A stretch of 20,000 nt of DNA from an uncultured virus (IMG/VR IMGVR_UViG_3300027896_000016) (IMGVR_UViG_3300027896_000016), one strand, 5' to 3'; positions 601-15,428 are shown, counted from the first letter of the stretch. Translations and numbers: made by a program. The notes: generated by a model from the sequence alone, not told the origin.

Positions 601-1050
601 TTAAACGATTTTTGCCTTTACTGTCTTTACCGCTACTCCATTATCAAAATTGTCTGTTGGAACATCTCCATCTGAATCATCGTCGTCATCGTCATCTTCG
701 TCGTCTTCATCACCATCTTCAATAGGCTGTTCTACAAATTCTTCATCATGAGATGCTAACACTAAAAGAGCGCAATCTTTCGGACTTAGCGGCTTATCCA
801 CAGCGGCCATTTTACATATTTCTAGCAAAGAATTTCCTAGCCAAGTAGCGATTCCAGAAACTTCTTCAAGATTTTCGGCCAAATCCTCAATATCTAATCC
901 TTTCAAAATACTATTTAATTTCACAATATTTTTATTCAAAATCGCTAATTGTTCAAGAATAGCCGAATTTTCACTTTGAGAACCTTTTATTGCCGCCTCT
1001 AAAAGTCCTGCAACAATATTAGGCTTCTGATTCTGTTGATTCTGATTCAT
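601..1050 (-). CDS. Hypothetical protein with acidic C-terminal tract
   Basis: Start re-assigned to MNQNQQ (ATG 1050, preceded by GAAGGGGAAG). It overlaps the end of the upstream gene and has a D/E-rich tail. Confidence 0.75.
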   Translation of the reverse strand: MNQNQQNQKPNIVAGLLEAAIKGSQSENSAILEQLAILNKNIVKLNSILKGLDIEDLAENLEEVSGIATWLGNSLLEICKMAAVDKPLSPKDCALLVLASHDEEFVEQPIEDGDEDDEDDDDDDDSDGDVPTDNFDNGVAVKTVKAKIV

Positions 1051-2995
1051 CGGAATCTTCCCCTTCATCTTCGTCACCATCCGGCGACTCTTCACCATTT
1101 TCCTCTTTTTTAATATCTTCAAATTCGGACTTAACAATAGCAAAACAACTTATACCCCATTTAATTACAGCCGGATTCTTAAGAAGCGCAACTAAATTAG
1201 CAATAAGATCTGGATTGGCATATTTGTTCAAAAAATCTACTACTTGCGGTTTACCAGTAAAAGACATTATTTCTTCGAGCATTTCTCGCGGTAATTTCGT
1301 TATAGCAAATTCAACCCAATTCGGTTCATTCTGCATAATTTTCGCGTCTTCGATCATCATAGCAAGTAATTCGTTTGTGTATTTATGCCAAATCATTTCT
1401 TTTTCTTGAACTGAAAATTGTGGCGCTTCAACAACTTGAACCTCTTCTTGTTTTGGCTGTTCTTGAGCCACAGGTGCCGGTTCCGATGTTTGCACTTGTG
1501 CTTGAGGCGTAACCCCTTGCTGCACCTGGACTTGTGGCACAACCAGCTTTGATTCCTGCGTTTTCTCCTTCCTTATCATAGTCGGTTGTGGTGCTGTCTC
1601 GGTTCTATTCAAAAGTCCAGGTTTTTCTTCTGTCACTACTTCAAGCATTTTTGGCGGTTTTACGATAATTGGCTGAATCGGCTGAACTGACTGAACTGGC
1701 TGCATTTGCGGTGGATTCTGAACACCAGTCAATTCAGGCATTCCCGATTTTCCAGCGAAACTAGCAATTAACGGAACCGCCTCACTAGCCAAATCCTTTA
1801 TTACTTCACCAGCGTCTTTGATCCAAGATTGTTTGCCGCTAGCATCGGCGGCATGATCCAATATCACTGTCATCATTTTCATTAAACTTTCGGACTTATC
1901 TTTCTGAGATGCAATTATCATCTCAGTCATAGCCTTCATCGTTTCCATACTACGGGCCATTGATTCGGCCTGAACACGACTCATATCGGCTTTTACTTTT
2001 TCGAGACTTTCGCTAGATCTTCCATCACGATCAGCCTGAATTTTCATAGCTTCAATTTGGGTTCGCATATTTTCAGATGCCTGTTGCGATTGCATTTTGA
2101 ATGTTTCTGCGATCATATTACTCTGTTGTTTCATGGCTTCGATCATTACTTGCTGAGAATTTGCAGTATTTGTGCTTTCTTTTGAATTAGCAATAGCAGC
2201 AACGAGAGCTTCAAAACCCTTAGAAACGTCGGCTTTTAGTGCTATAATCTTTTCTTCTTGCGCCCTGAATTTTTCGTCGATTTTCTTCTGTTCATCGACA
2301 TCCTTCATGAATTCTTTAATAGTATCGTCTACATTTGGTTCATTAGACTTATCTTTTTCTAGTTCTTTTAGCTCTTTTTCTAATTCAACAAGCCGCTTTT
2401 TTCTATGGGTTTCCTGAATTTTTTGCTCTAAATCCTGGCAACGATCTGATTCAATTGTCTTAAATTTGCCATTTCCACCGTTATCACCAGCACCAGAATC
2501 TAATTTATCCTCAGCTTCAATGGGATCGCCGGAAACTTCGGTCATGAAATTGCTGTGTATAGCGCCGGAATCATCATAAACTAGAATCCTGTACTTGCCA
2601 CCACCGAACAATTTTCGTATTGTTTCTTCTAATTCAAGTTTATTTGAAGGCTTTGTTTCAGAATGTAAATCGCGCTCTGGATAAATCTTGCCACTTTTAG
2701 GATGCTTATAAGTAGGTTTATTAACTTTCACGACCCATCCTTCATAATCTGTCGTTCCAATAAGCTGCAAAATATCCCAATTATTGCGAATTACACTGCC
2801 AATTCCAATAGGTCTATCAGGTTCTCGCAAAAAAGATGGAACTTCAACCCGATCCCTTTCGCGTTCTCGTATTGATTCCCGCCGATCTTCCCGAATTTTC
2901 CTTTCTTTGTCTTCTTCGGTTTCTTGAATAGGTTGAACTTCTGTCTCTTTAATCTCCCTCTTAATTGTAATCGCTTTCTCTTTTTCTTCGGCCAA
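1019..2995 (-). CDS. Large coiled-coil, Q/M/E-rich hypothetical protein
   Basis: Long ORF (track 1019-3028). The likely start is TTG 2995 behind AGGGAGG. It has an N-terminal globular segment (IRKLFGGGKYRILVYD), long heptad-rich helices, a P/Q-rich linker and an acidic tail. Confidence 0.85.
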   Translation of the reverse strand: MAEEKEKAITIKREIKETEVQPIQETEEDKERKIREDRRESIRERERDRVEVPSFLREPDRPIGIGSVIRNNWDILQLIGTTDYEGWVVKVNKPTYKHPKSGKIYPERDLHSETKPSNKLELEETIRKLFGGGKYRILVYDDSGAIHSNFMTEVSGDPIEAEDKLDSGAGDNGGNGKFKTIESDRCQDLEQKIQETHRKKRLVELEKELKELEKDKSNEPNVDDTIKEFMKDVDEQKKIDEKFRAQEEKIIALKADVSKGFEALVAAIANSKESTNTANSQQVMIEAMKQQSNMIAETFKMQSQQASENMRTQIEAMKIQADRDGRSSESLEKVKADMSRVQAESMARSMETMKAMTEMIIASQKDKSESLMKMMTVILDHAADASGKQSWIKDAGEVIKDLASEAVPLIASFAGKSGMPELTGVQNPPQMQPVQSVQPIQPIIVKPPKMLEVVTEEKPGLLNRTETAPQPTMIRKEKTQESKLVVPQVQVQQGVTPQAQVQTSEPAPVAQEQPKQEEVQVVEAPQFSVQEKEMIWHKYTNELLAMMIEDAKIMQNEPNWVEFAITKLPREMLEEIMSFTGKPQVVDFLNKYANPDLIANLVALLKNPAVIKWGISCFAIVKSEFEDIKKEENGEESPDGDEDEGEDSDESESTESEA

Positions 2996-3190
2996 GGCAA
3001 ATCCTCCCTTTTCTAATTGGGCTTCCAAGCCCTATTTTCTGAAACTATAGGAATTGACACCTATTACGAAATTACAGTTTAACAATTATGAAATAGTTAA
3101 TTAATTTGATAATTCGGCAATTCGATTATTTCTGTGTTCTGCATTTTTATGTTGGGCCAAAGCCTTAATCGAAAAACAATTCTTGTCACC

Positions 3191-3219
3191 ATTAGACCCT
3201 ATAAAACTTTAAAAGTCAA
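3191..3219 (-). promoter_or_regulatory. Putative leftward promoter TTGACT-N17-TCTAAT
   Basis: Minus-strand -35 TTGACT (3219-3214), 17-nt spacer, -10 TCTAAT (3196-3191). It points at the leftward operon and shares its -10 context with the rightward promoter. Confidence 0.6.
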
Positions 3220-3301
3220 GCCCTTTTTTAAGATATTTCGTGCATAAGCGCAAAAATGACCTACATAGTGCAATCCAAACGTTAAACTACCATTAGTGGT
3301 A

Positions 3302-3549
3302 TTACCAAATGGTAACACCACTACCAGTAGTGGTTTCATATACTAACCTTGTTAAGATTAGCATGACATAACCCTGCAAGGTGCAGACAAAATCAAGCAA
3401 TCACCTATCAGAAATTGCCTAGATTTACTCTTTTTTCTGCAAATTGGGCCAAGGCTACCCGTCGGTAGGATCATACCTAGCGGTAGCCCTAAACCAAAAA
3501 GCTACCATTTGGTAGGATTCTCCCGGTAGAGCATAATATTCGTCGGTAG
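3302..3549. repeat. Cluster of 14-bp palindromic boxes CTACC-N4-GGTAG (operator/iteron-like)
   Basis: TTACC-AAAT-GGTAA 3302-3315, CTACC-CGTC-GGTAG 3455-3468, ATACC-TAGC-GGTAG 3473-3486 and CTACC-ATTT-GGTAG 3502-3515, plus CGGTAG half-sites near 3524 and 3544. Confidence 0.65.
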
Positions 3550-3643
3550 ATTTGCGGACAACGCATATTATGCACCCGTGGGGCAAGGCATAACTCACAG
3601 TAAAACAAGGGGTTATGACGGCAAAAATAATCGAAAATTCGAC

Positions 3644-3671
3644 TTGACAACGGGGTACCTCATGGTCTAAT
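3644..3671 (+). promoter_or_regulatory. Putative rightward promoter TTGACA-N16-TCTAAT with extended -10 TG
   Basis: TTGACA 3644-3649, TG at 3663-3664, TCTAAT 3666-3671, with an A-rich upstream segment. Confidence 0.65.
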
Positions 3672-3673
3672 GG

Positions 3674-4090
3674 GTGTAGCTTCCATCGGTAGGGGTAGAC
3701 ACAAGCCCGCTACCCGGTAGCGTGTTACACGATCCTTGACAATCGCGGCGGTTCTGAGGCACGTAGCGGGAGATTACTTTCCCGCCGAACGGAAAACCGG
3801 CGATTTGCTGATTATTTGTAAAATCCGTAAATCTCAACCGGGAAAACGAAACGCCTTAAACGCTCAATCGGCTTGCAATCGCAAATTTGCGGTTTTAACC
3901 GTAAATTTACCGATTGTGACGGCTCTACAGATTATCACGCGGTAGGGGTGTTTATTTCCCCCTGCCGCTTTTCAGCGATTTGCGGTTTTTCTCGCAAATT
4001 TGCGAATCCCTGAAAAGCGGCAGTAGTGCCGTTTAGAAAATCGTGCCGATTTTGCGGTAATCGCACGATTTTAACAAAATACCGCAAATG
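3674..4090 (+). ncRNA. Highly structured ~420-nt leader or ncRNA with a 3' pseudoknot
   Basis: Consecutive long stems: 3873-3919; a perfect 14-bp stem 3962-3975/4010-4023; a 10-bp stem 4037-4046/4063-4072 whose loop region TTTGCGGTA pairs with TACCGCAAA 4080-4088. No credible ORF. Confidence 0.6.
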
Positions 4091-4103
4091 AGGGATTAGT
4101 AAA

Positions 4104-4550
4104 ATGGCTAAGAAGACTGAAGTTAGTGCGGTCCCGGTTGTCCCGGTAGCGGCTGCACCCGTCGCGCCCATGGCCCTTCCCGTCGCGCCCGTGGCCCCTG
4201 CCGCGAGCGTTCCGGCTCCCGAGGGTAAGGGGAAGCGGGGACGGCCAAAGGGATCGAAGGTTGAAGCGGTTCGGAATAACTACGCTTCCCTTATTTCGGC
4301 TGTAAGAGTTGATAAGGCCGAAAAGGTTACTCCCGATATGATCGAAAAGTATCGGGCCGAAATGGTAGCTTTCTACAGCGAAAAGGGTAATTTCGCTACG
4401 GATAAGCTTCCGGTCAAGATCTTGGAGCGTATGGGGATTGCGGCTCCGAAGTCCAGTAAGAAGGATTTGATTACGGAAGTCGCAAGCCTTAAGGCCGAAC
4501 TGGAAATGTTGCGCGCAATGAAGGCGCAAATGGAAGGGGGAAAGAAGTAA
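4104..4550 (+). CDS. AT-hook-containing protein with Pro/Ala/Val-rich N-terminus and C-terminal coiled coil
   Basis: KRGRPKGS AT-hook, GAGGGA RBS, followed by a terminator. Paralog of 5069-5587. Confidence 0.85.
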   Translation: MAKKTEVSAVPVVPVAAAPVAPMALPVAPVAPAASVPAPEGKGKRGRPKGSKVEAVRNNYASLISAVRVDKAEKVTPDMIEKYRAEMVAFYSEKGNFATDKLPVKILERMGIAAPKSSKKDLITEVASLKAELEMLRAMKAQMEGGKK

Positions 4551-4571
4551 CAAACTGCAAGTAAGGCAATT

Positions 4572-4607
4572 AAGCCCGAATGGGAAAATTCCCGTTCGGG
4601 CTTTTTT
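4572..4607 (+). terminator. Intrinsic terminator-like hairpin
   Basis: AAGCCCGAATGGGAA-AA-TTCCCGTTCGGGCTT followed by a T-tract. Confidence 0.8.
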
Positions 4608-4614
4608 GTTATAT

Positions 4615-4734
4615 TGGGAATGGCCGAAGAATAAAGGGCCGATAAAACCGCGTTTTTTACAGAAAACGCGCAATAATCGACCGCCCGCTGTAACGGGAAA
4701 GAAGCCAAATAAGGCTTCCGGCCAAATTTTCCCA
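4615..4734 (+). ncRNA. Structured RNA, kissing-loop four-way junction, copy 1
   Basis: P1 TGGCCG/CGGCCA; P2 arm ending in loop TTACAG (4657-4662); P3 CCCG/CGGG with loop CTGTAA (4688-4693); P4 GAAGCC/GGCTTC. Homologous to copy 2 with compensatory changes. Confidence 0.75.
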
Positions 4735-4746
4735 TATTTGTAGTAC

Positions 4747-4783
4747 TCCCCGATAGGTCTTTCCGGCCTATCGGGGATTTTTT
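4747..4783 (+). terminator. CCCCGRTAG-family hairpin
   Basis: TCCCCGATAGGTC-TTTCC-GGCCTATCGGGGA plus T-tract. Confidence 0.8.
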
Positions 4784-4834
4784 GTTATATTGCCGGTACT
4801 TAGCTGCGCAGCAAGCGGCAGCACTTACCGACTT

Positions 4835-4946
4835 GGGCATAGCCGAAATTAAAGGGTTGAATAAAATCTTGCTTTTTTGCAGAAAACAAGATTGAAACAA
4901 CCGCCCCTGCAAGGGAAATTGGCGCATAAGCCAACGACTATTGCCC
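4835..4946 (+). ncRNA. Structured RNA, kissing-loop four-way junction, copy 2
   Basis: GGGCA/TGCCC and TAGCCG/CGACTA closing stems; GGTTG/CAACC and AATCTTG/CAAGATT arm with loop TTGCAG (4877-4882); CCC/GGG with loop CTGCAA (4907-4912); TTGGC/GCCAA. Confidence 0.75.
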
Positions 4947-4947
4947 T

Positions 4948-4984
4948 TCCCCGATTGTCCTTACCGGGCAATCGGGGATTTTTT
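4948..4984 (+). terminator. CCCCGRTAG-family hairpin
   Basis: TCCCCGATTGTCC-TTACC-GGGCAATCGGGGA plus T-tract. Confidence 0.8.
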
Positions 4985-5068
4985 ATTATAGGCTATTATT
5001 AGCCGACAATATTCGCTAGAGCGTTCTAGCGAAAATCGAATAAACCCGAGGGATCGAAAGGGGATCGT

Positions 5069-5587
5069 ATGGCGAATCGAAAGGATAGGTCAATTGCTAG
5101 CACGTCTTTTGTGTCGTTTGTTGAGAAGCACAAAGGCAAGACAAAAAAGATTTCAGTCGAAAAGTTAGACGAATTGCGCGAAGAGTATATAGACGCAATT
5201 GGGGAAAACGATAATTTTGAATATGAAGCCGTTCCGATTTCACTGCGAAATATGGTCGAATGGGAAGATGAAGACGATAATTCGGACAACGATTCGGACG
5301 ATAATGAAGATATTGACGATGAAGACGATGAAGACGATGAAGACGAAAGGCCGCGCCGAAAATTGCGAAATTCGCGCAAATCGCGCAAAGTCGGCAACGC
5401 CGATATTTTGGCTGCAATTGTCGGCCTAACGAATGCAATTGCAGGAAAGACAACGCCAAAGCCGGAACAACCGGAAAAGCCGGAACCTAAACCGGAAACA
5501 AAAAAGGATTTGCGGGATCAAGTCGCGGCGCTTAAAGCCGAAATTGCGGCACAAACGGCGCAAACGGCAACGCCACAAAAGCCGTAA
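5069..5587 (+). CDS. Hypothetical protein with long acidic tract, paralog of 4104-4550
   Basis: AAAGGGGA RBS, D/E-rich insert, C-terminal KKDLRDQVAALKAEI. Confidence 0.85.
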   Translation: MANRKDRSIASTSFVSFVEKHKGKTKKISVEKLDELREEYIDAIGENDNFEYEAVPISLRNMVEWEDEDDNSDNDSDDNEDIDDEDDEDDEDERPRRKLRNSRKSRKVGNADILAAIVGLTNAIAGKTTPKPEQPEKPEPKPETKKDLRDQVAALKAEIAAQTAQTATPQKP

Positions 5588-5593
5588 TAAATT

Positions 5594-5682
5594 GAAAATC
5601 GGTAGCGGTGCAAAATCCGGGCGAAAGAACCGGACTGCACAGAGTAATTAAGCCGACGTTGCGAATCGGTCTACCGATTTTC
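5594..5682 (+). ncRNA. Putative three-way-junction structured RNA
   Basis: Perfect 12-bp closing stem GAAAATCGGTAG/CTACCGATTTTC enclosing a GTGCA-TCCGG/CCGGA-TGCAC arm and a GCCGA/TCGGT arm. Confidence 0.55.
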
Positions 5683-5686
5683 TTTT

Positions 5687-5721
5687 AACCCCGGTTGCTC
5701 GAAAGGGCTTCCGGGGTTTTT
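5687..5721 (+). terminator. CCCCG-family hairpin with GAAA tetraloop
   Basis: AACCCCGG-TT-GCTC-GAAA-GGGC-TT-CCGGGGTT plus T-tract. Confidence 0.75.
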
Positions 5722-5770
5722 CTATTGTGTAGTGTTGGGCAAAGGGAAATTTGGCAAAAAGGAGAAAAAG

Positions 5771-6028
5771 ATGCATTGGAAATGTCCAATAGAAGATTGT
5801 TCTAATTGCACCGGATATCTTTGCGACAAAGCCGATGAAAATGACGATGATTTGTTAGATGAGGAAATAGATAATAAGCCTTATTGGTTTTGCGAAATGT
5901 GCGGATACAAAAACGAAAAGAAGCCTATGCCGCTAGATCGTCAGAAATTTTACGATAAAGTGGCAAGTTCTCACGCGCCAATTTGCCCGAAATGCAAATC
6001 CGAAAGCCTTATGCCAGTAGGATTTTGA
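5771..6028 (+). CDS. Small Cys-rich zinc-finger protein
   Basis: Start re-assigned to ATG 5771 behind AAAGGAGAAA. Contains CxxC motifs (CEMC, CPKC) and an N-terminal Cys cluster. Confidence 0.8.
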   Translation: MHWKCPIEDCSNCTGYLCDKADENDDDLLDEEIDNKPYWFCEMCGYKNEKKPMPLDRQKFYDKVASSHAPICPKCKSESLMPVGF

Positions 6029-6031
6029 ATT

Positions 6032-6066
6032 AATCCCCAGTAGGCCGAAAGGCTTATCGGGGATTT
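6032..6066 (+). terminator. CCCCGRTAG-family hairpin
   Basis: AATCCCCAGTAGGCC-GAAA-GGCTTATCGGGGATT. Confidence 0.75.
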
Positions 6067-6122
6067 CTTATTTATAGAGAGTTTGTACAAAGGAGAAAGG
6101 AATTAGCATAAAGGAGAAAGAA

Positions 6123-7697
6123 ATGGAATTGCTGACAAATGCGCTTAAGGCGCGGATTCCGGGGATACATTTAAGATCCCTAGAAGAACGGCGAGCACTT
6201 GAAACAATTCTGAATTCGGTTCAGGAAATTAATACCGTATCCAAAGACAAAAAAGAACTATGGATATGGACGCTAAACGCCAAAGGCGCATTTCGAGTCA
6301 ATCCGAAAAGCACAAAATGGGAATTAGAGCCAATTGGCGACGACACTATTTCTTTCGATCAGGCTATGGATAAGTTTAATTCTTTGGGCGACAACGAAAC
6401 AAATCCACGAATTGTATTTTGTCTACTCGATCCTTGGGATAGCTTGACGCAAGCCATAAATTTGCGAATTTTGCGCGATTCTCTGGCTAACTCCCGAGCA
6501 AACGGACAATGTATTATTCTTTTGGGCAAATCGTGGCAGATTCCAGAGGAAATTCAACAAGATGTTATGATCTTAGATATCAATTTGCCAACAGTTGACG
6601 AAATTATTTATTATATCGGAGCCTTGTGCGATCAATACGTTCAAAGATTTGGCGGAAAAATTAAAGTAGAAAAAGATATTATACCGGAGTTCGCAAAAGT
6701 ATGTTCCGGTTTGACATTCAACGAGATTAAGAATATCGTCAGTCTTTCTATTGTAGAGTACAAGGAAATTTCGCCCAAATGTATCGCGCTTGCTAACGAT
6801 AATAAGAAACAAATCGTTAGCCGGGACGGTACGCTTTATTTCGAGGAATTGCTAAAGAGCATAGACGATATCGGCGGCATGGGCAATTTGAAAAGATGGA
6901 TTTTCCGGCGCAAAAAGACGAATCAAGACGCCGCGCAAAAGAAAGGTATCTATAACCCAAAGGGTGTGTTGCTTATTGGCCCGCCGGGTACGGGAAAGTC
7001 GGCTTGCAGCAAAGCCATTTCGACTATCTTTAATGTGCCGCTTTTAACTCTGAATATGGATCGAATATTGAATAAGTGGGTAGGGGAAAGTGAAAGCAAT
7101 ATGAGAAAAGCCTTTAAAACGGCAGAGGCATGTGCCCCGTGCTGTTTAAGGATTGACGAAATTGATAAAGCATTTGCCGCCGACACTTCGGGAGTCGGCA
7201 CAAAGCTATTGGGACAAATTTTAACGTGGATGCAAGAAAAAACGGCTAGAGTCTTTATTATTGCTACAGCTAATTCGATTGAAAACCTACCTGCACCCCT
7301 ATTCAGAAAAGGACGATTCAATGCGCTTTTCTTTGTTGATATGCCCGGCCTATCGGCTAGGCGCGACATTTTCAAGATTTACCTGAAAAAGTGCAAATTT
7401 GAGATTTCCGACAAAGATCTCAATATTCTAGCACAAAAGACCGATAATTATAATGGCGCGGAAATTGAAGATATTGTTCAAGATGCTTTGATCGAAGCGT
7501 TTGACGCCGATAGGGATATGGTAATTGACGATTTGCTCAGAGCAATTTCTGAAGCAACGCCGATTGCTATAACAATGTCGGAACAAGTTGACGCTATTCG
7601 GAAATGGGCCAAAGACAAAAAGGCCCAAATGGCCGATTTGCCCGAAAAGGCCGAAAAGAAAGGGGGGCTTTCTCTCCCCGATCTAGATCTAAACTAA
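6123..7697 (+). CDS. Ycf46/SpoVK-like AAA+ ATPase
   Basis: Walker A GPPGTGKS, Walker B CLRIDEIDK, pore loop KWVGESE, SRH ATAN...LFRKGRF, a degenerate N-terminal AAA-like domain, and a C-terminal MSEQVDAIRKWA typical of the Ycf46 group. Confidence 0.9.
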   Translation: MELLTNALKARIPGIHLRSLEERRALETILNSVQEINTVSKDKKELWIWTLNAKGAFRVNPKSTKWELEPIGDDTISFDQAMDKFNSLGDNETNPRIVFCLLDPWDSLTQAINLRILRDSLANSRANGQCIILLGKSWQIPEEIQQDVMILDINLPTVDEIIYYIGALCDQYVQRFGGKIKVEKDIIPEFAKVCSGLTFNEIKNIVSLSIVEYKEISPKCIALANDNKKQIVSRDGTLYFEELLKSIDDIGGMGNLKRWIFRRKKTNQDAAQKKGIYNPKGVLLIGPPGTGKSACSKAISTIFNVPLLTLNMDRILNKWVGESESNMRKAFKTAEACAPCCLRIDEIDKAFAADTSGVGTKLLGQILTWMQEKTARVFIIATANSIENLPAPLFRKGRFNALFFVDMPGLSARRDIFKIYLKKCKFEISDKDLNILAQKTDNYNGAEIEDIVQDALIEAFDADRDMVIDDLLRAISEATPIAITMSEQVDAIRKWAKDKKAQMADLPEKAEKKGGLSLPDLDLN

Positions 7698-7708
7698 AAC
7701 ATATTAAT

Positions 7709-7746
7709 TAAAACCCCGATAGGCTTAATTGCTTATCGGGGTTTTA
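7709..7746 (+). terminator. CCCCGRTAG-family hairpin
   Basis: TAAAACCCCGATAGGC-TTAATT-GCTTATCGGGGTTTTA. Confidence 0.8.
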
Positions 7747-7793
7747 TTATGTGTGGACATTTTTGTTAGGCTTTAGCAAAAAGGAGAAAGAAA

Positions 7794-7988
7794 ATGGCTG
7801 CGGGAGATTTGATTAAAGTCGAAATTGACAAAGAGGGAAAGGTACGACTTTCAATAATCTCGAACGATCCCAAACACGGGGATCTATTAGAACCATTCGA
7901 AAATATAGTTTCGAATGGAAATGCGAAATTGGTTGAAAAACACCGTTGCGATCATTCGCATAGTGTTGGGCATACGCATAGCCATTAA
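7794..7988 (+). CDS. Small protein, DUF2997-like partner of Ycf46-type ATPase
   Basis: IKVEIDKEGKVRL pattern, size and position next to the ATPase, AAAGGAGAAA RBS, His-rich tail. Confidence 0.65.
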   Translation: MAAGDLIKVEIDKEGKVRLSIISNDPKHGDLLEPFENIVSNGNAKLVEKHRCDHSHSVGHTHSH

Positions 7989-8025
7989 TTGTGCGAAATT
8001 AAACCTTAAAATAAAGGAGAAAATC

Positions 8026-8349
8026 ATGCCTTGCTGGACTGTCGTAAAAGTGCCTTTAGAGATGGACATTAAGGGCAACAATAAAGACATAGAAGAAGCC
8101 CTAAATAGAATGGGCTATGGAATTGACGTTAAGCGCGAGGGTTTTATTCGTGCAGATAACGTTACTTTGACAAAAACCGGCGATTCGTGGCGTCTTTCGA
8201 CGCCGAACAAGACTTTCGATAGAAAGAAGTTTATTCAGGAAATGAGTCGGGCAAAAATCTTGAATGAGGCCAAGCGCAAAAATTATAAGGTCATTCAAGA
8301 TGAAATTGACAAAAACGGCAATTTGTTAATGCGAATGATGGTGAGATAA
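8026..8349 (+). CDS. DUF1257/Ycf35-like protein
   Basis: Start re-assigned to ATG 8026 behind AAAGGAGAAA. IEEALNRMGY and C-terminal NYKVIQDEIDKNGNLLMRM resemble the family, and the gene context fits. Confidence 0.65.
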   Translation: MPCWTVVKVPLEMDIKGNNKDIEEALNRMGYGIDVKREGFIRADNVTLTKTGDSWRLSTPNKTFDRKKFIQEMSRAKILNEAKRKNYKVIQDEIDKNGNLLMRMMVR

Positions 8350-8358
8350 CCGAAAATA

Positions 8359-8484
8359 AAATTGGGTAACGATTTGCAGCGTCTTTTGGGATGGATTTTT
8401 GGTGATTTACTCTGCAAAAACCAAAGACCATTAGCCCGACTGGCTTATATTTCTTTAGCTAGGAAATAATAAGCTACCCAATTT
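8359..8484 (+). ncRNA. Structured RNA, four-way junction with TTTGCAG/CTGCAAA kissing loops (relative of the 4615/4835 copies)
   Basis: 10-bp closing stem AAATTGGGTA/TACCCAATTT, three internal arms, complementary loops at 8373-8379 and 8412-8418. G-U pairs favour the + strand. Confidence 0.6.
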
Positions 8485-8485
8485 G

Positions 8486-8517
8486 GCCCCGATAGCCTTC
8501 CCGGTTGTCGGGGCTTT
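8486..8517 (+). terminator. CCCCGRTAG-family hairpin
   Basis: GCCCCGATAGCC-TTCCC-GGTTGTCGGGGC followed by TTTATT. Confidence 0.7.
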
Positions 8518-8573
8518 ATTATTGACAGACATTGTGTAGTCAAAGGCGAAATTTTAGCAAAAGGAGAAAGATC

Positions 8574-9623
8574 ATGGTTGTAAAAGAAATTTCGGACATT
8601 GGTTACACTTTTTTTACTGATAATTTGCCCGCTGCAATTACAGTAGAAAAGGTCAAGTCGGCCCTTGAAGTCGCAAATCTCGATCCAGAAATGGCGCGAG
8701 AATTAGCAAAAAGGTTCTGTTTCGCACGGGCCAAAAACCATATGCATGATTTGGGCTTGATAGATCAAGTTATTGAAGACGAAAAACGCTGGATGTTCCA
8801 GTTAAGTAAGCGTTATTTCGAGCAAGAAGGAATTACTTACGAGAAACAAGCAATATTCTGGTATAACAAAGAAAGCCAAAGTATTGACTCTGACGACGAA
8901 AAAGTCAAAGCCAGAGTTGAAGAGTTATTTGCGCGTTTTGGTGAAGTTTACTTGCCGTCGGATTTGACGAAAATAATCAACAAGATCTTTAATCGTCAAA
9001 AAGGTATGATTGCCCTTAGACGGCATGGCGCAATTTACTTTGTGCCCGAAAAGTATCGGGAACTGCTAGACAAAATAATAATCTTTATGTGTGAAATCAG
9101 CGCTGATTGCGTTGTCTGCAATGTCGGCGCAAGTTCAAAGGGCGGAGTTAAGGAAAAAGCAATGTCGATGTTGAAAGACGACGTTCGCAATTTCCTTGAG
9201 AAAGTCAGTCAAGATGTTAAAGACCTTGACGCGGCTGTTAAGAACAAAGACGGCCCGAAGAAACAAGAACGGCGTATTTTGCAGAACCGCTTTGACGAAT
9301 TGTTCAATGAAATACAGAGAATCGCCAATTTCTGTATCTCGTGCGGCGAGGATTTTGCCAAGTATATCAAGGAAATCAAGACCGAAGAAATTAATTTGGC
9401 TGCAATCTTCGAAGCTGACTGCGATCCGGCAATTCTTGCAGCCGTCGCGCAAGGCGGCAATTTGTCGCAAACAATGGCGCGAATTGTTAAAGGTATCACG
9501 TTAGATCAGGAATTGCCCGTTGTAGACGTGGCAAAAGTTCAGGCAGTCGAGCTAATTTTGGCGGAATCCAAGAAAAAGCCCGATTTGCCCGTTGTGCAAG
9601 TCGGAGCAATGCCGCAAATTTAA
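8574..9623 (+). CDS. Hypothetical protein, possibly DUF3150/DUF6744-like
   Basis: Start re-assigned to ATG 8574 behind AAAGGAGAAAG. LRRHGAIYFVP motif followed by a helical region. Confidence 0.75.
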   Translation: MVVKEISDIGYTFFTDNLPAAITVEKVKSALEVANLDPEMARELAKRFCFARAKNHMHDLGLIDQVIEDEKRWMFQLSKRYFEQEGITYEKQAIFWYNKESQSIDSDDEKVKARVEELFARFGEVYLPSDLTKIINKIFNRQKGMIALRRHGAIYFVPEKYRELLDKIIIFMCEISADCVVCNVGASSKGGVKEKAMSMLKDDVRNFLEKVSQDVKDLDAAVKNKDGPKKQERRILQNRFDELFNEIQRIANFCISCGEDFAKYIKEIKTEEINLAAIFEADCDPAILAAVAQGGNLSQTMARIVKGITLDQELPVVDVAKVQAVELILAESKKKPDLPVVQVGAMPQI

Positions 9624-11555: not shown

Positions 11556-11595
11556 AATCCCCGGTAGCTTCTTATAGAGGCTATCGGGGATTTTT
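11556..11595 (+). terminator. CCCCGRTAG-family hairpin
   Basis: AATCCCCGGTAGCTTCT-TAT-AGAGGCTATCGGGGATT plus T-tract. Confidence 0.8.
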
Positions 11596-11624
11596 GTTTG
11601 GGCCACAAAAAAAAGGAGAGAGAA

Positions 11625-11867
11625 ATGACAAAAGAAGAGAAGACCGAAGTTTTGAGAAATGCGCTCGTAATGGAAATCAAAAATCGTATAATAATTGCAA
11701 GTTGCAAGAGAAAGGCGGTAATTTGGACAAATTATCTCAATAAAGTTGATAAAAATAAAAAATTACCGCAAAATTCCGACGTAGTAGATGTATTTGTATG
11801 GATTTGGAGAAATATGAAATGTATTCGCGGAAATTATCAAAAATTCTTTAATATTTTCTTTGCTTGA
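11625..11867 (+). CDS. Hypothetical protein (single gene between two near-identical hairpins)
   Basis: ATG 11625 behind AAAGGAGAG. Confidence 0.7.
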   Translation: MTKEEKTEVLRNALVMEIKNRIIIASCKRKAVIWTNYLNKVDKNKKLPQNSDVVDVFVWIWRNMKCIRGNYQKFFNIFFA

Positions 11868-13149: not shown

Positions 13150-13223
13150 GCTCCGGTAGCCCAATTGGCAGTGGCAACGGTCTTAAGAACCGTCAAGTGT
13201 GGGTTCGAATCCCACCCGGAGCA
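13150..13223 (+). tRNA. trnL: tRNA-Leu(TAA), short variable loop, CCA not encoded
   Basis: Acceptor GCTCCGG/CCGGAGC+A, anticodon arm ACGGT-CTTAAGA-ACCGT, T arm GTGGG-TTCGAAT-CCCAC. Confidence 0.9.
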
Positions 13224-13253
13224 CTTTTATTTTGTCACAAAAAGGAGAAAACA

Positions 13254-14738: not shown

Positions 14739-14816
14739 GGGACCGTAGCTCAGTTGGTTTAGAGCAAGAAATTTTTAATTTCTAGGTCGAGAGTTCGATT
14801 CTCTCCGGTCCCACCA
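14739..14816 (+). tRNA. trnK: tRNA-Lys(TTT), CCA encoded
   Basis: Acceptor GGGACCG/CGGTCCC+ACCA, anticodon arm AGAAA-TTTTTAA-TTTCT, T arm GAGAG-TTCGATT-CTCTC. Confidence 0.9.
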
Positions 14817-14837: not shown

Positions 14838-15428
14838 ATGAATGAAGAATGGGTTCCGCGGGTAATTAGAAAAACTGCATCAATAGGAAGATATACTTTT
14901 GCAGTAGTACCAGAACATCCTAGAAAATATGAGCATGATTATGTTTTAGAACATGTTATTGTAATGGAAAATCATTTAAAAAGATTATTAATGGAAGGAG
15001 AAATTGTTCATCATATTGATAATAACGGAAAAAATAATGAAATAGAAAATTTAGAATTAAAATCGAAATCAAAACATACAATTCATCATAAATTTTTGCG
15101 AAATGATTATGGAAGAAAAATGTTTATGTTTAGATGTCCAAATTGTTTAAAAATCTGTATAAGACAAAAAATTCATAAAACTTCATATAGATATGGAAAG
15201 GGATTAGATTTTTGTTCAAGAAATTGTTCAGGAGAATATTATCCTAGACTTAGAAAATATAATTTATTAAGAGATCAACTTGCCGCAAAGATAAATTTTG
15301 TAAAAGAATTTAAACAAATAACTGAAGAAAATTATTCAAAATATACCCTTAGAATGGGAGAAAGCCACGATACTGTAAATCCGGGTTCGATTCCCGCCGG
15401 TCCCACTATGCCAATGGGCCTTAGATAA
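14838..15428 (+). CDS. HNH homing endonuclease with C-terminal Zn-binding region
   Basis: YVLEHVIVMENHLKRLLMEGEIVHHIDNNGKNNEIENL HNH motif, CPNC...FCSRNC, visibly AT-rich relative to its flanks. Confidence 0.9.
   Translation: MNEEWVPRVIRKTASIGRYTFAVVPEHPRKYEHDYVLEHVIVMENHLKRLLMEGEIVHHIDNNGKNNEIENLELKSKSKHTIHHKFLRNDYGRKMFMFRCPNCLKICIRQKIHKTSYRYGKGLDFCSRNCSGEYYPRLRKYNLLRDQLAAKINFVKEFKQITEENYSKYTLRMGESHDTVNPGSIPAGPTMPMGLR
15381..15405 (+). pseudogene. tRNA 3'-half remnant (T arm + acceptor 3' strand)
   Basis: CGGG-TTCGATT-CCCG followed by CGGTCCCA, the same acceptor strand as tRNA-Lys. No adjacent D arm or 5' strand. Confidence 0.7.

Follow-up and report, generated by a model that had tools for sequence, protein, structure and literature searches.

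Two diverged tandem copies of a four-helix RNA fold with complementary, co-changing loops on a phage-like contig

We found that a 20,000-nucleotide stretch of DNA (the window, by which we mean the whole stretch that was analysed) contains two tandem copies of a conserved RNA fold that has been evolving compensatorily. The contig looks like a phage, uncultivated and from freshwater, and the two copies lie 3' of its first rightward gene. The reading that we prefer, tentatively and at a little below an even chance, is that the copies are two paralogous stand-alone small RNAs of an undescribed family, which would kiss in trans to form rings or filaments and act as an RNA scaffold.

Both copies have four helices arranged as a four-way junction, in the order P1, an A-rich linker of 9-10 nt (J1/2), P2, a single G, P3, AAA and P4. 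P2 is a long arm of ~15 bp, P3 has 3-4 bp, and P4 has 5-6 bp and a loop that ends in ATAA. P4 abuts P1 directly (a 0-nt linker), and the linker between P2 and P3 is 1 nt. J1/2 reads CCGAA...AAAGGG and the tip of the P2 arm is TTTT-loop-AAAA in each copy, the junction nucleotides are common to copies 1 and 2, and both P2 arms contain an A-rich 5x5 internal loop in which ATAAAA is conserved on the 5' side. The parts of the two RNAs are as follows.

4615-4734, + strand: RNA copy 1, 120 nt (MFE fold, covariance model and structural alignment A5)
4615-4626 with 4719-4734, + strand: P1 of copy 1
4627-4636, + strand: J1/2 linker of copy 1
4637-4682, + strand: P2 arm of copy 1, with an internal loop and with loop L2 at 4657-4662 (TTACAG)
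4683, + strand: single G linking P2 and P3 of copy 1
4684-4697, + strand: P3 of copy 1, with loop L3 at 4688-4693 (CTGTAA)
4698-4700, + strand: AAA linker of copy 1
4701-4718, + strand: P4 of copy 1, loop AAATAA
4835-4946, + strand: RNA copy 2, 112 nt (MFE fold, covariance model and structural alignment A5)
4835-4845 with 4935-4946, + strand: P1 of copy 2
4846-4854, + strand: J1/2 linker of copy 2
4855-4902, + strand: P2 arm of copy 2, with loop L2 at 4877-4882 (TTGCAG)
4903, + strand: single G linking P2 and P3 of copy 2
4904-4915, + strand: P3 of copy 2, with loop L3 at 4907-4912 (CTGCAA)
4916-4918, + strand: AAA linker of copy 2
4919-4934, + strand: P4 of copy 2, loop GCATAA

The copies arrive at this identical architecture when each is folded separately (MFE). 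On the + strand, copy 1 has an MFE of -49.3 kcal/mol (z = -5.78) and copy 2 one of -36.2 kcal/mol (z = -3.59), and in neither case was any of 200 shuffles as stable. A covariance model built from copy 1 only was able to recover copy 2 (48.0 bits, E = 1.7e-9). Elsewhere in the 20-kb window this model scored at most 11.5 bits, bar one match of 23 bits, which is the near-palindromic P2 arm of copy 1 itself on the - strand.

To compare the copies pair by pair we made a structural alignment (A5) in which they are aligned via the covariance model, because MAFFT misaligned their 3' halves, and to which the loop-loop helix was added. In A5, whose counts lean towards the copy 1 structure because the alignment is fitted to that structure (n = 2 sequences), 96.3% of cells pair, and 9 of the 42 pairs have both partners changed, and no pair has a change in just one partner. 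When the 3' partners were slid by 1-3 columns as controls, there were 0-1 both-side changes and 32-47% pairing. Identity between the copies is ~72% in the stems (49 of 68 columns) and in the unpaired columns (23 of 32) alike, so they are well diverged and nearly every change in a stem has been compensated. Just two sites are half-compensated, one in P1 of copy 2 and the other in P2 of copy 1, and both are C.A on the + strand. All of this evidence comes from two sequences in one metagenomic contig.

The loops L2 and L3 are complementary at 6/6 positions in both copies (TTACAG/CTGTAA in copy 1, TTGCAG/CTGCAA in copy 2), and they differ between the copies by one compensatory swap of A-U to G-C. 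Complementarity of this extent is rare by chance: when the 18 letters of the copy 1 loops were shuffled 100,000 times, 126 of the shuffles gave 6-nt complementarity between some pair of the three hairpin loops. An earlier note on this DNA had described two copies with this anatomy, folding identically, swapping their stems compensatorily and keeping their loops complementary by changing them together, and on all of these points our analysis bears it out. Calculated energies of the cognate L2-L3 duplexes are -4.1 kcal/mol for copy 1 and -6.1 kcal/mol for copy 2. For cross pairs between the copies they are -1.2 kcal/mol (L2 of copy 1 with L3 of copy 2) and -4.1 kcal/mol (L2 of copy 2 with L3 of copy 1). 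Because the loop swap weakens just one of the cross pairs, the paralogues would be insulated from each other only partly, in one direction.

Helices in a junction that are joined by short linkers stack coaxially, and two fully paired 6-nt loops normally make a helix that is collinear with both of their stems, as in TAR/TAR* and RNA I/RNA II. By these rules P4 would stack on P1, and P3 on P2, because the linkers between them are 0 nt and 1 nt long. L2 and L3 would then sit at opposite ends of a rod of ~25 layers, and loops so placed could not meet within one molecule, so the geometry of P2-P3 stacking would make pairing between L2 and L3 more naturally intermolecular. L2 of one molecule would pair with L3 of the next, head-to-tail, which would yield filaments, or rings if the P2 internal loop bends. 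Junction-stacking rules are thus what points to pairing in trans, which we regard as the most likely arrangement. The fullest form of this model is a self-assembling phage RNA of ~115 nt in which the P2+P3 rod and L2-L3' kisses build RNA-only rings or filaments, in two partly orthogonal versions; we consider this possible, if doubtful. A self-assembling or scaffold role would seem to suit the anatomy better than the other functions suggested in the earlier note.

The same two small RNAs might instead kiss within one molecule, with P2 bending at its 5x5 loop into a compact fold that would bind a protein or a small molecule and serve in trans as a decoy, sponge or scaffold. All the evidence from the fold and from the pairing of the loops fits this arrangement equally, and the internal loop with its conserved ATAAAA, present in both arms, could allow the arm to fold back. 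Intramolecular loop-loop kisses lock the junction RNAs of purine and lysine riboswitches, and P2 of the lysine riboswitch does fold back. However, P3 is just 3-4 bp long against the ~15 bp of P2, and the 1-nt linker between them favors end-to-end stacking. By a rough geometric estimate, a collinear stack of P3, the kiss and P2b would also need the 5-nt strands of the internal loop to span ~35 A. We take the intramolecular kiss seriously, as the main rival of our reading, while thinking it unlikely.

We rejected the possibility that the conserved region is protein-coding. The ten gapped columns between copies 1 and 2 amount to seven indels of 1 nt and one of 3 nt, which leaves no reading frame common to both copies, and ORFs that overlap the RNA region, on either strand, contain no Pfam family. 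By searching Rfam 15 with the whole window at gathering scores we found nothing but three tRNAs. At E-values up to 10, the interval 4500-5100 gave 12 weak matches, the best of them with 20.7 bits where the gathering score is 80, and riboswitches, ribozymes, manA, ROOL, GOLLD, pRNA and C4 are not among them. The earlier note had not recognised a known riboswitch or ribozyme here and had proposed an Rfam search, and the outcome agrees with it, since no Rfam family matched. Its suggestion that the RNA might nevertheless be a ribozyme found no support, as no Rfam ribozyme family matches. Literature searches found no account of the RNA pair.

The possibility of an antitoxin, also raised previously, fared no better. 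The type III antitoxin ToxI consists of ~36-nt tandem repeats beside a toxin gene. There is no ToxI-like array of short repeats in 4400-5200, where the only arrays are of 12 nt (x2.1) and 11 nt (x3.1) and lie outside both RNAs, and the four adjacent ORFs contain no defence or toxin family. PADLOC families were absent from these four, at 4104-4550, 5069-5587, 5732-6028 and 601-1143, and from ORF 1019-3028.

We searched for relatives with a second covariance model, R2, built from copies 1 and 2 and run over every locus that was fetched; as a positive control, it scored the window copies at 142 and 114.7 bits. At least 332 loci came from exact-pattern scans, of which five covered IMG/VR and one each JGI metagenome contigs and GTDB genome contigs. 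In one IMG/VR scan (105 loci) R2 gave a single match, of 23.1 bits, at 99-198 on the - strand of locus L039. We rejected it, because it lies away from where the pattern matched and consists of near-identical GGGTCCAGAAATTGGACCC hairpins in a row. This unrelated viral contig has at least four near-identical hairpins, AAAGGGTCCAGAAATTGGACCCTTT, arrayed along 40-260 of the locus (- strand). Two other IMG/VR pattern loci were rejected because there was no hairpin architecture around the pattern and R2 gave 0 matches. The best R2 score was 12.5 bits in an IMG/VR scan with 34 loci, and 14.6 bits, among the matches listed, in one with at least 120 loci; in a crude script screen, 0 of the 120 loci listed had two or more of the hallmark features. 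The best of 53 further IMG/VR loci reached 17.5 bits and was also rejected, being preselected by the pattern, poorly aligned and without P4. The 15 loci from JGI metagenome contigs scored at most 12.0 bits, and the 3 from GTDB genome contigs at most 13.7 bits. These blanks are weak evidence, because an exact-pattern scan misses any relative that differs in the chosen blocks.

Searches that started from the neighboring genes and from the nucleotide sequence also gave no homolog. The 524-aa ATPase encoded downstream has 14 IMG/VR loci at 28-36% identity, and R2 found the RNA to be absent from these 14 loci and from 14 whole records, which are of distantly related phages. The ORFs flanking the RNAs, at 4104-4550 and 5069-5587, have no relatives in IMG/VR. 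Among GenBank phages, a megablast search with 3000-9000 had no match, and blastn with 4560-5000 matched nothing beyond a 28-nt piece in three Erwinia phage records, by chance. Among sequencing runs, a single public DNA run was listed as containing the locus, namely a freshwater metagenome from which the window may have come, and no RNA run was listed. Contigs from sequencing runs yielded one of 5,965 nt that is identical over 4300-5300, with no variants, and one unrelated piece of 37 nt. A family beyond the two copies, as the earlier note had it, is not supported: the pattern and model searches of IMG/VR, JGI and GTDB contigs and the similarity searches of GenBank phages yielded no homologue. 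The RNA is so far an orphan, and the phage lineage is so far essentially unsampled.

Each copy is followed on the + strand by a terminator hairpin, and a further one precedes copy 1.

4572-4607, + strand: T1, terminator hairpin and T-run; 14-pair stem at 4572-4603; ends ORF 4104-4550 and adjoins copy 1
4602-4616, + strand: 15-nt string TTTTTTGTTATATTG, ending exactly at the first G-C pair of copy 1
4747-4783, + strand: T2, terminator hairpin and T-run; 13-pair stem at 4747-4777, then TTTTTT; 3' of copy 1
4778-4792, + strand: identical second copy of the 15-nt string TTTTTTGTTATATTG, after T2, ending where the extra hairpin begins
4794-4830, + strand: extra hairpin in the gap between T2 and copy 2 (MFE fold of 4784-4992); copy 1 has no counterpart on its 5' side
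4948-4984, + strand: T3, terminator hairpin and T-run; 13-pair stem at 4948-4978, then TTTTTT; 3' of copy 2

T2 and T3 belong to a family of TCCCCGAT..ATCGGGGA hairpins whose members also stand after the protein genes at 7709, 8485, 11556, 11871 and 17213, so the RNA copies occupy gene-like slots. That each copy fills a slot like a gene had been claimed before, and it is what we see: an inter-gene hairpin of this family with its T-run comes after each of them. Both copies thus have an intrinsic terminator of their own (T2 and T3), as a stand-alone sRNA gene should. The family follows most of the rightward genes on the + strand, in the form (A)TCCCCGAT/GGTAG...ATCGGGGA(T) with a T-rich tail. 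At the other end of the copies, the only + strand occurrences of TTTTTGTTATA, the core of TTTTTTGTTATATTG, are at 4603 and 4779, and TTTTTTGTTATATTG may be a phage promoter-like element or a mere terminator tail. A promoter-motif scan found no sigma-70-like promoter 5' of copy 1 or copy 2; it found 53 promoter-like sites, against 51.2 expected by chance.

The functional strand is very probably the + strand. T2 and T3 have their T-runs on this strand only, it carries all the genes from 4104 onward, and A makes up 69% and 59% of its unpaired positions in the two copies, an enrichment that is typical of structured RNAs. We also considered a functional transcript from the - strand, either one antisense RNA running from 4985 to 4570 or two RNAs, with the + strand hairpins being incidental. 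The - strand is slightly the stabler of the two (MFEs of -55.0 kcal/mol, z = -6.45, and -41.1 kcal/mol, z = -3.90), both of the half-compensated C.A sites would become G.U on it, and there is a weak sigma-70-like site (9/12 match) at 5093-5064. However, promoter-like sites in the window are at chance level, U would make up 59-69% of the unpaired positions, unusually for structured RNAs, the T-runs would terminate nothing, and the transcript would run against every gene from 4104 onward. We judge a - strand transcript improbable.

It is also quite unlikely, to a further degree, that the copies are a tandem riboswitch or cis-acting leader, in which two aptamers with terminators gate ORF 5069-5587 and the genes beyond it. 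The order of elements (aptamer, terminator, aptamer, terminator, ORF) resembles that of known tandem riboswitches; copy 2 and T3 lie 85 nt before ORF 5069-5587, the conserved nucleotides are those of the junction, and copy 1 follows the T1 stem so closely, after 11 nt, that no space is left for a promoter. On the other hand, the RNA domain and its terminator coexist in MFE folds of both units, and T2 and T3 still form fully when the 5' strand of P1 is barred from pairing, with no antiterminator appearing. This independence of T2 and T3 from P1, the fact that they are generic hairpins found after protein genes as well, and the presence of a strong terminator (T1) upstream of the first copy argue against a terminator-type riboswitch, and no Rfam riboswitch family matches.

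The RNA locus sits in an early or replication-type region. Apart from orphan ORFs, which are many, the contig encodes an AAA ATPase (phrog_8638; PHROG, E = 2e-114), HNH and PD-(D/E)XK nucleases and a Com-like zinc ribbon. By tblastn, the GenBank proteins closest to the ATPase come from a Streptococcus satellite phage and from Corndog-like mycobacteriophages and are <30% identical to it.

6123-7697: AAA ATPase, 524 aa, which also matches PADLOC IetA models (E = 6e-26)
13150-13224: tRNA gene, Leu-TAA
14441-14515: tRNA gene, Met-CAT
14739-14816: tRNA gene, Lys-TTT
14838-15428: HNH endonuclease gene, interspersed with the three tRNA genes

The RNA copies come just 3' of the first rightward gene, ORF 4104-4550, an orphan with a Pro/Ala/Val-rich N-terminus, its own terminator (T1) and a KRGRPKGSK stretch that we take to be AT-hook-like. 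ORF 5069-5587, which starts 85 nt past T3, is an orphan too, in which a basic patch comes after a long acidic D/E run; a repeat, GGGATCGAAAG x3.1 at 5050-5084, covers its RBS and start codon. The leftward and rightward gene blocks are separated by ~1 kb without a convincing gene (3030-4100), which is dense in CGGTAG-type repeats (among them CCGTCGGTAGG x3 and CGGTAGGGGT x2) and in GCAAATTTGCG palindromes, and which might serve as an origin or in early regulation.

Two further explanations draw on this context. One is that the copies are a cis-acting RNA for processive antitermination, like HK022 put, which would modify RNA polymerase and so let it pass the many terminators between genes. A hairpin and U-run stand between most of the + strand genes, and in one case a hairpin of the family is followed by the next start codon after only ~33 nt (11593-11625), which makes read-through or antitermination seem common, even necessary, in this phage. 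Within the rightward transcription unit the RNAs have an early position, and put, too, comes as two diverged copies of a single fold, putL and putR. However, T1 is upstream of both copies, the fold is unlike the two-hairpin put RNA, and the complementary loops are left unexplained, which makes antitermination very unlikely in our view. The other, which we think least probable of all, is that a DNA-level element is conserved here and no RNA, such as single-strand initiation or origin hairpins beside the repeats of 3030-4100: the copies are ~500 nt from this ~1-kb non-coding CGGTAG/GCAAATTTGCG region, and compensatory change would keep hairpins in ssDNA equally well, but the terminator after each copy, the 59-69% A at unpaired + strand positions and the covarying complementarity of the loops would all be unexplained.

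Our preferred reading, of two stand-alone small RNAs that kiss in trans, can be set beside several known systems. OmrA/OmrB and PrrF1/PrrF2 are tandem paralogous sRNAs, side-by-side diverged copies with terminators of their own. The present pair is similarly tandem and diverged, with a terminator for each copy, but those RNAs are loosely structured and act by Hfq-type base-pairing through single-stranded seeds, whereas nearly all of the RNA described here is structured, and the motif scan gave no promoter for it. Purine and lysine riboswitches have a closing stem, a junction with conserved nucleotides and a loop-loop kiss, followed by an intrinsic terminator. The present RNAs share the closing stem, the conserved junction nucleotides, the loop complementarity and the terminator, but differ in having no antiterminator, very unequal arms and terminators that are generic inter-gene hairpins.

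The pRNA of phi29 is close in size (~120 nt), and it too has two complementary loops that covary among relatives; they pair between molecules and close a ring. The present RNAs also have two complementary, covarying loops, a likeness of principle only. The pRNA, a single-copy RNA of small phi29-like phages, is built round a three-way junction and makes its loop contact through 4 bp, in contrast to the four-way junction, 6-nt loop pair and two copies found here, and we recognised no phi29-type genes (packaging motor) in the 20-kb window.

The manA RNAs of cyanophages (<200 nt) are described in a preprint as assembling through intermolecular kissing loops into 8-, 10- and 60-mers, seen by cryo-EM (bioRxiv 10.64898/2026.07.01.735769), and the habitat given for manA (RF01745) is T4-like cyanophages and marine metagenomes (PMC2864571). 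Like them, the RNAs in the window are small, phage-borne multi-helix RNAs with loop-loop complementarity. They differ in having four helices and one loop pair where manA has up to nine loops, and in that each copy ends at its own terminator, in a freshwater phage, whereas manA lies in a 5' UTR; the Rfam model of manA did not match either copy, even at E-values up to 10. The ROOL and GOLLD RNAs, encoded by phages and prophages and often located near tRNA genes, are reported to form RNA-only assemblies via covarying kissing loops, and these loops, first noticed by covariation, proved to be intermolecular bridges (PMC12286853). The present window has three tRNA genes as well, though they are 8-10 kb from the RNAs. 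ROOL and GOLLD are far larger, with 500-800+ nt and ~20 or more helices, compared to 112-120 nt and four helices here.

Whether a 'pseudoknot' backed by covariation is a tertiary or a quaternary contact is the question that has recently reshaped the understanding of manA, ROOL and GOLLD, and an RNA with a single, fully complementary loop pair is well suited to asking it. The small size of the RNAs permits direct synthesis, loop-swap mutants and cryo-EM, and two partly orthogonal natural versions are at hand. The structured RNA pair is well supported and forms a new family in sequence and structure, and in kind it is one of the phage-borne structured RNAs, like others; it adds to the evidence that phages carry such RNAs in gene-like slots. 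If it is real, it is a new, compact four-helix family of phage RNA without a relative in Rfam or in the collections that we searched. Should the self-assembling model also be true, it would be smaller and simpler than any natural RNA quaternary module seen so far, in a family apart from manA, ROOL, GOLLD and pRNA.
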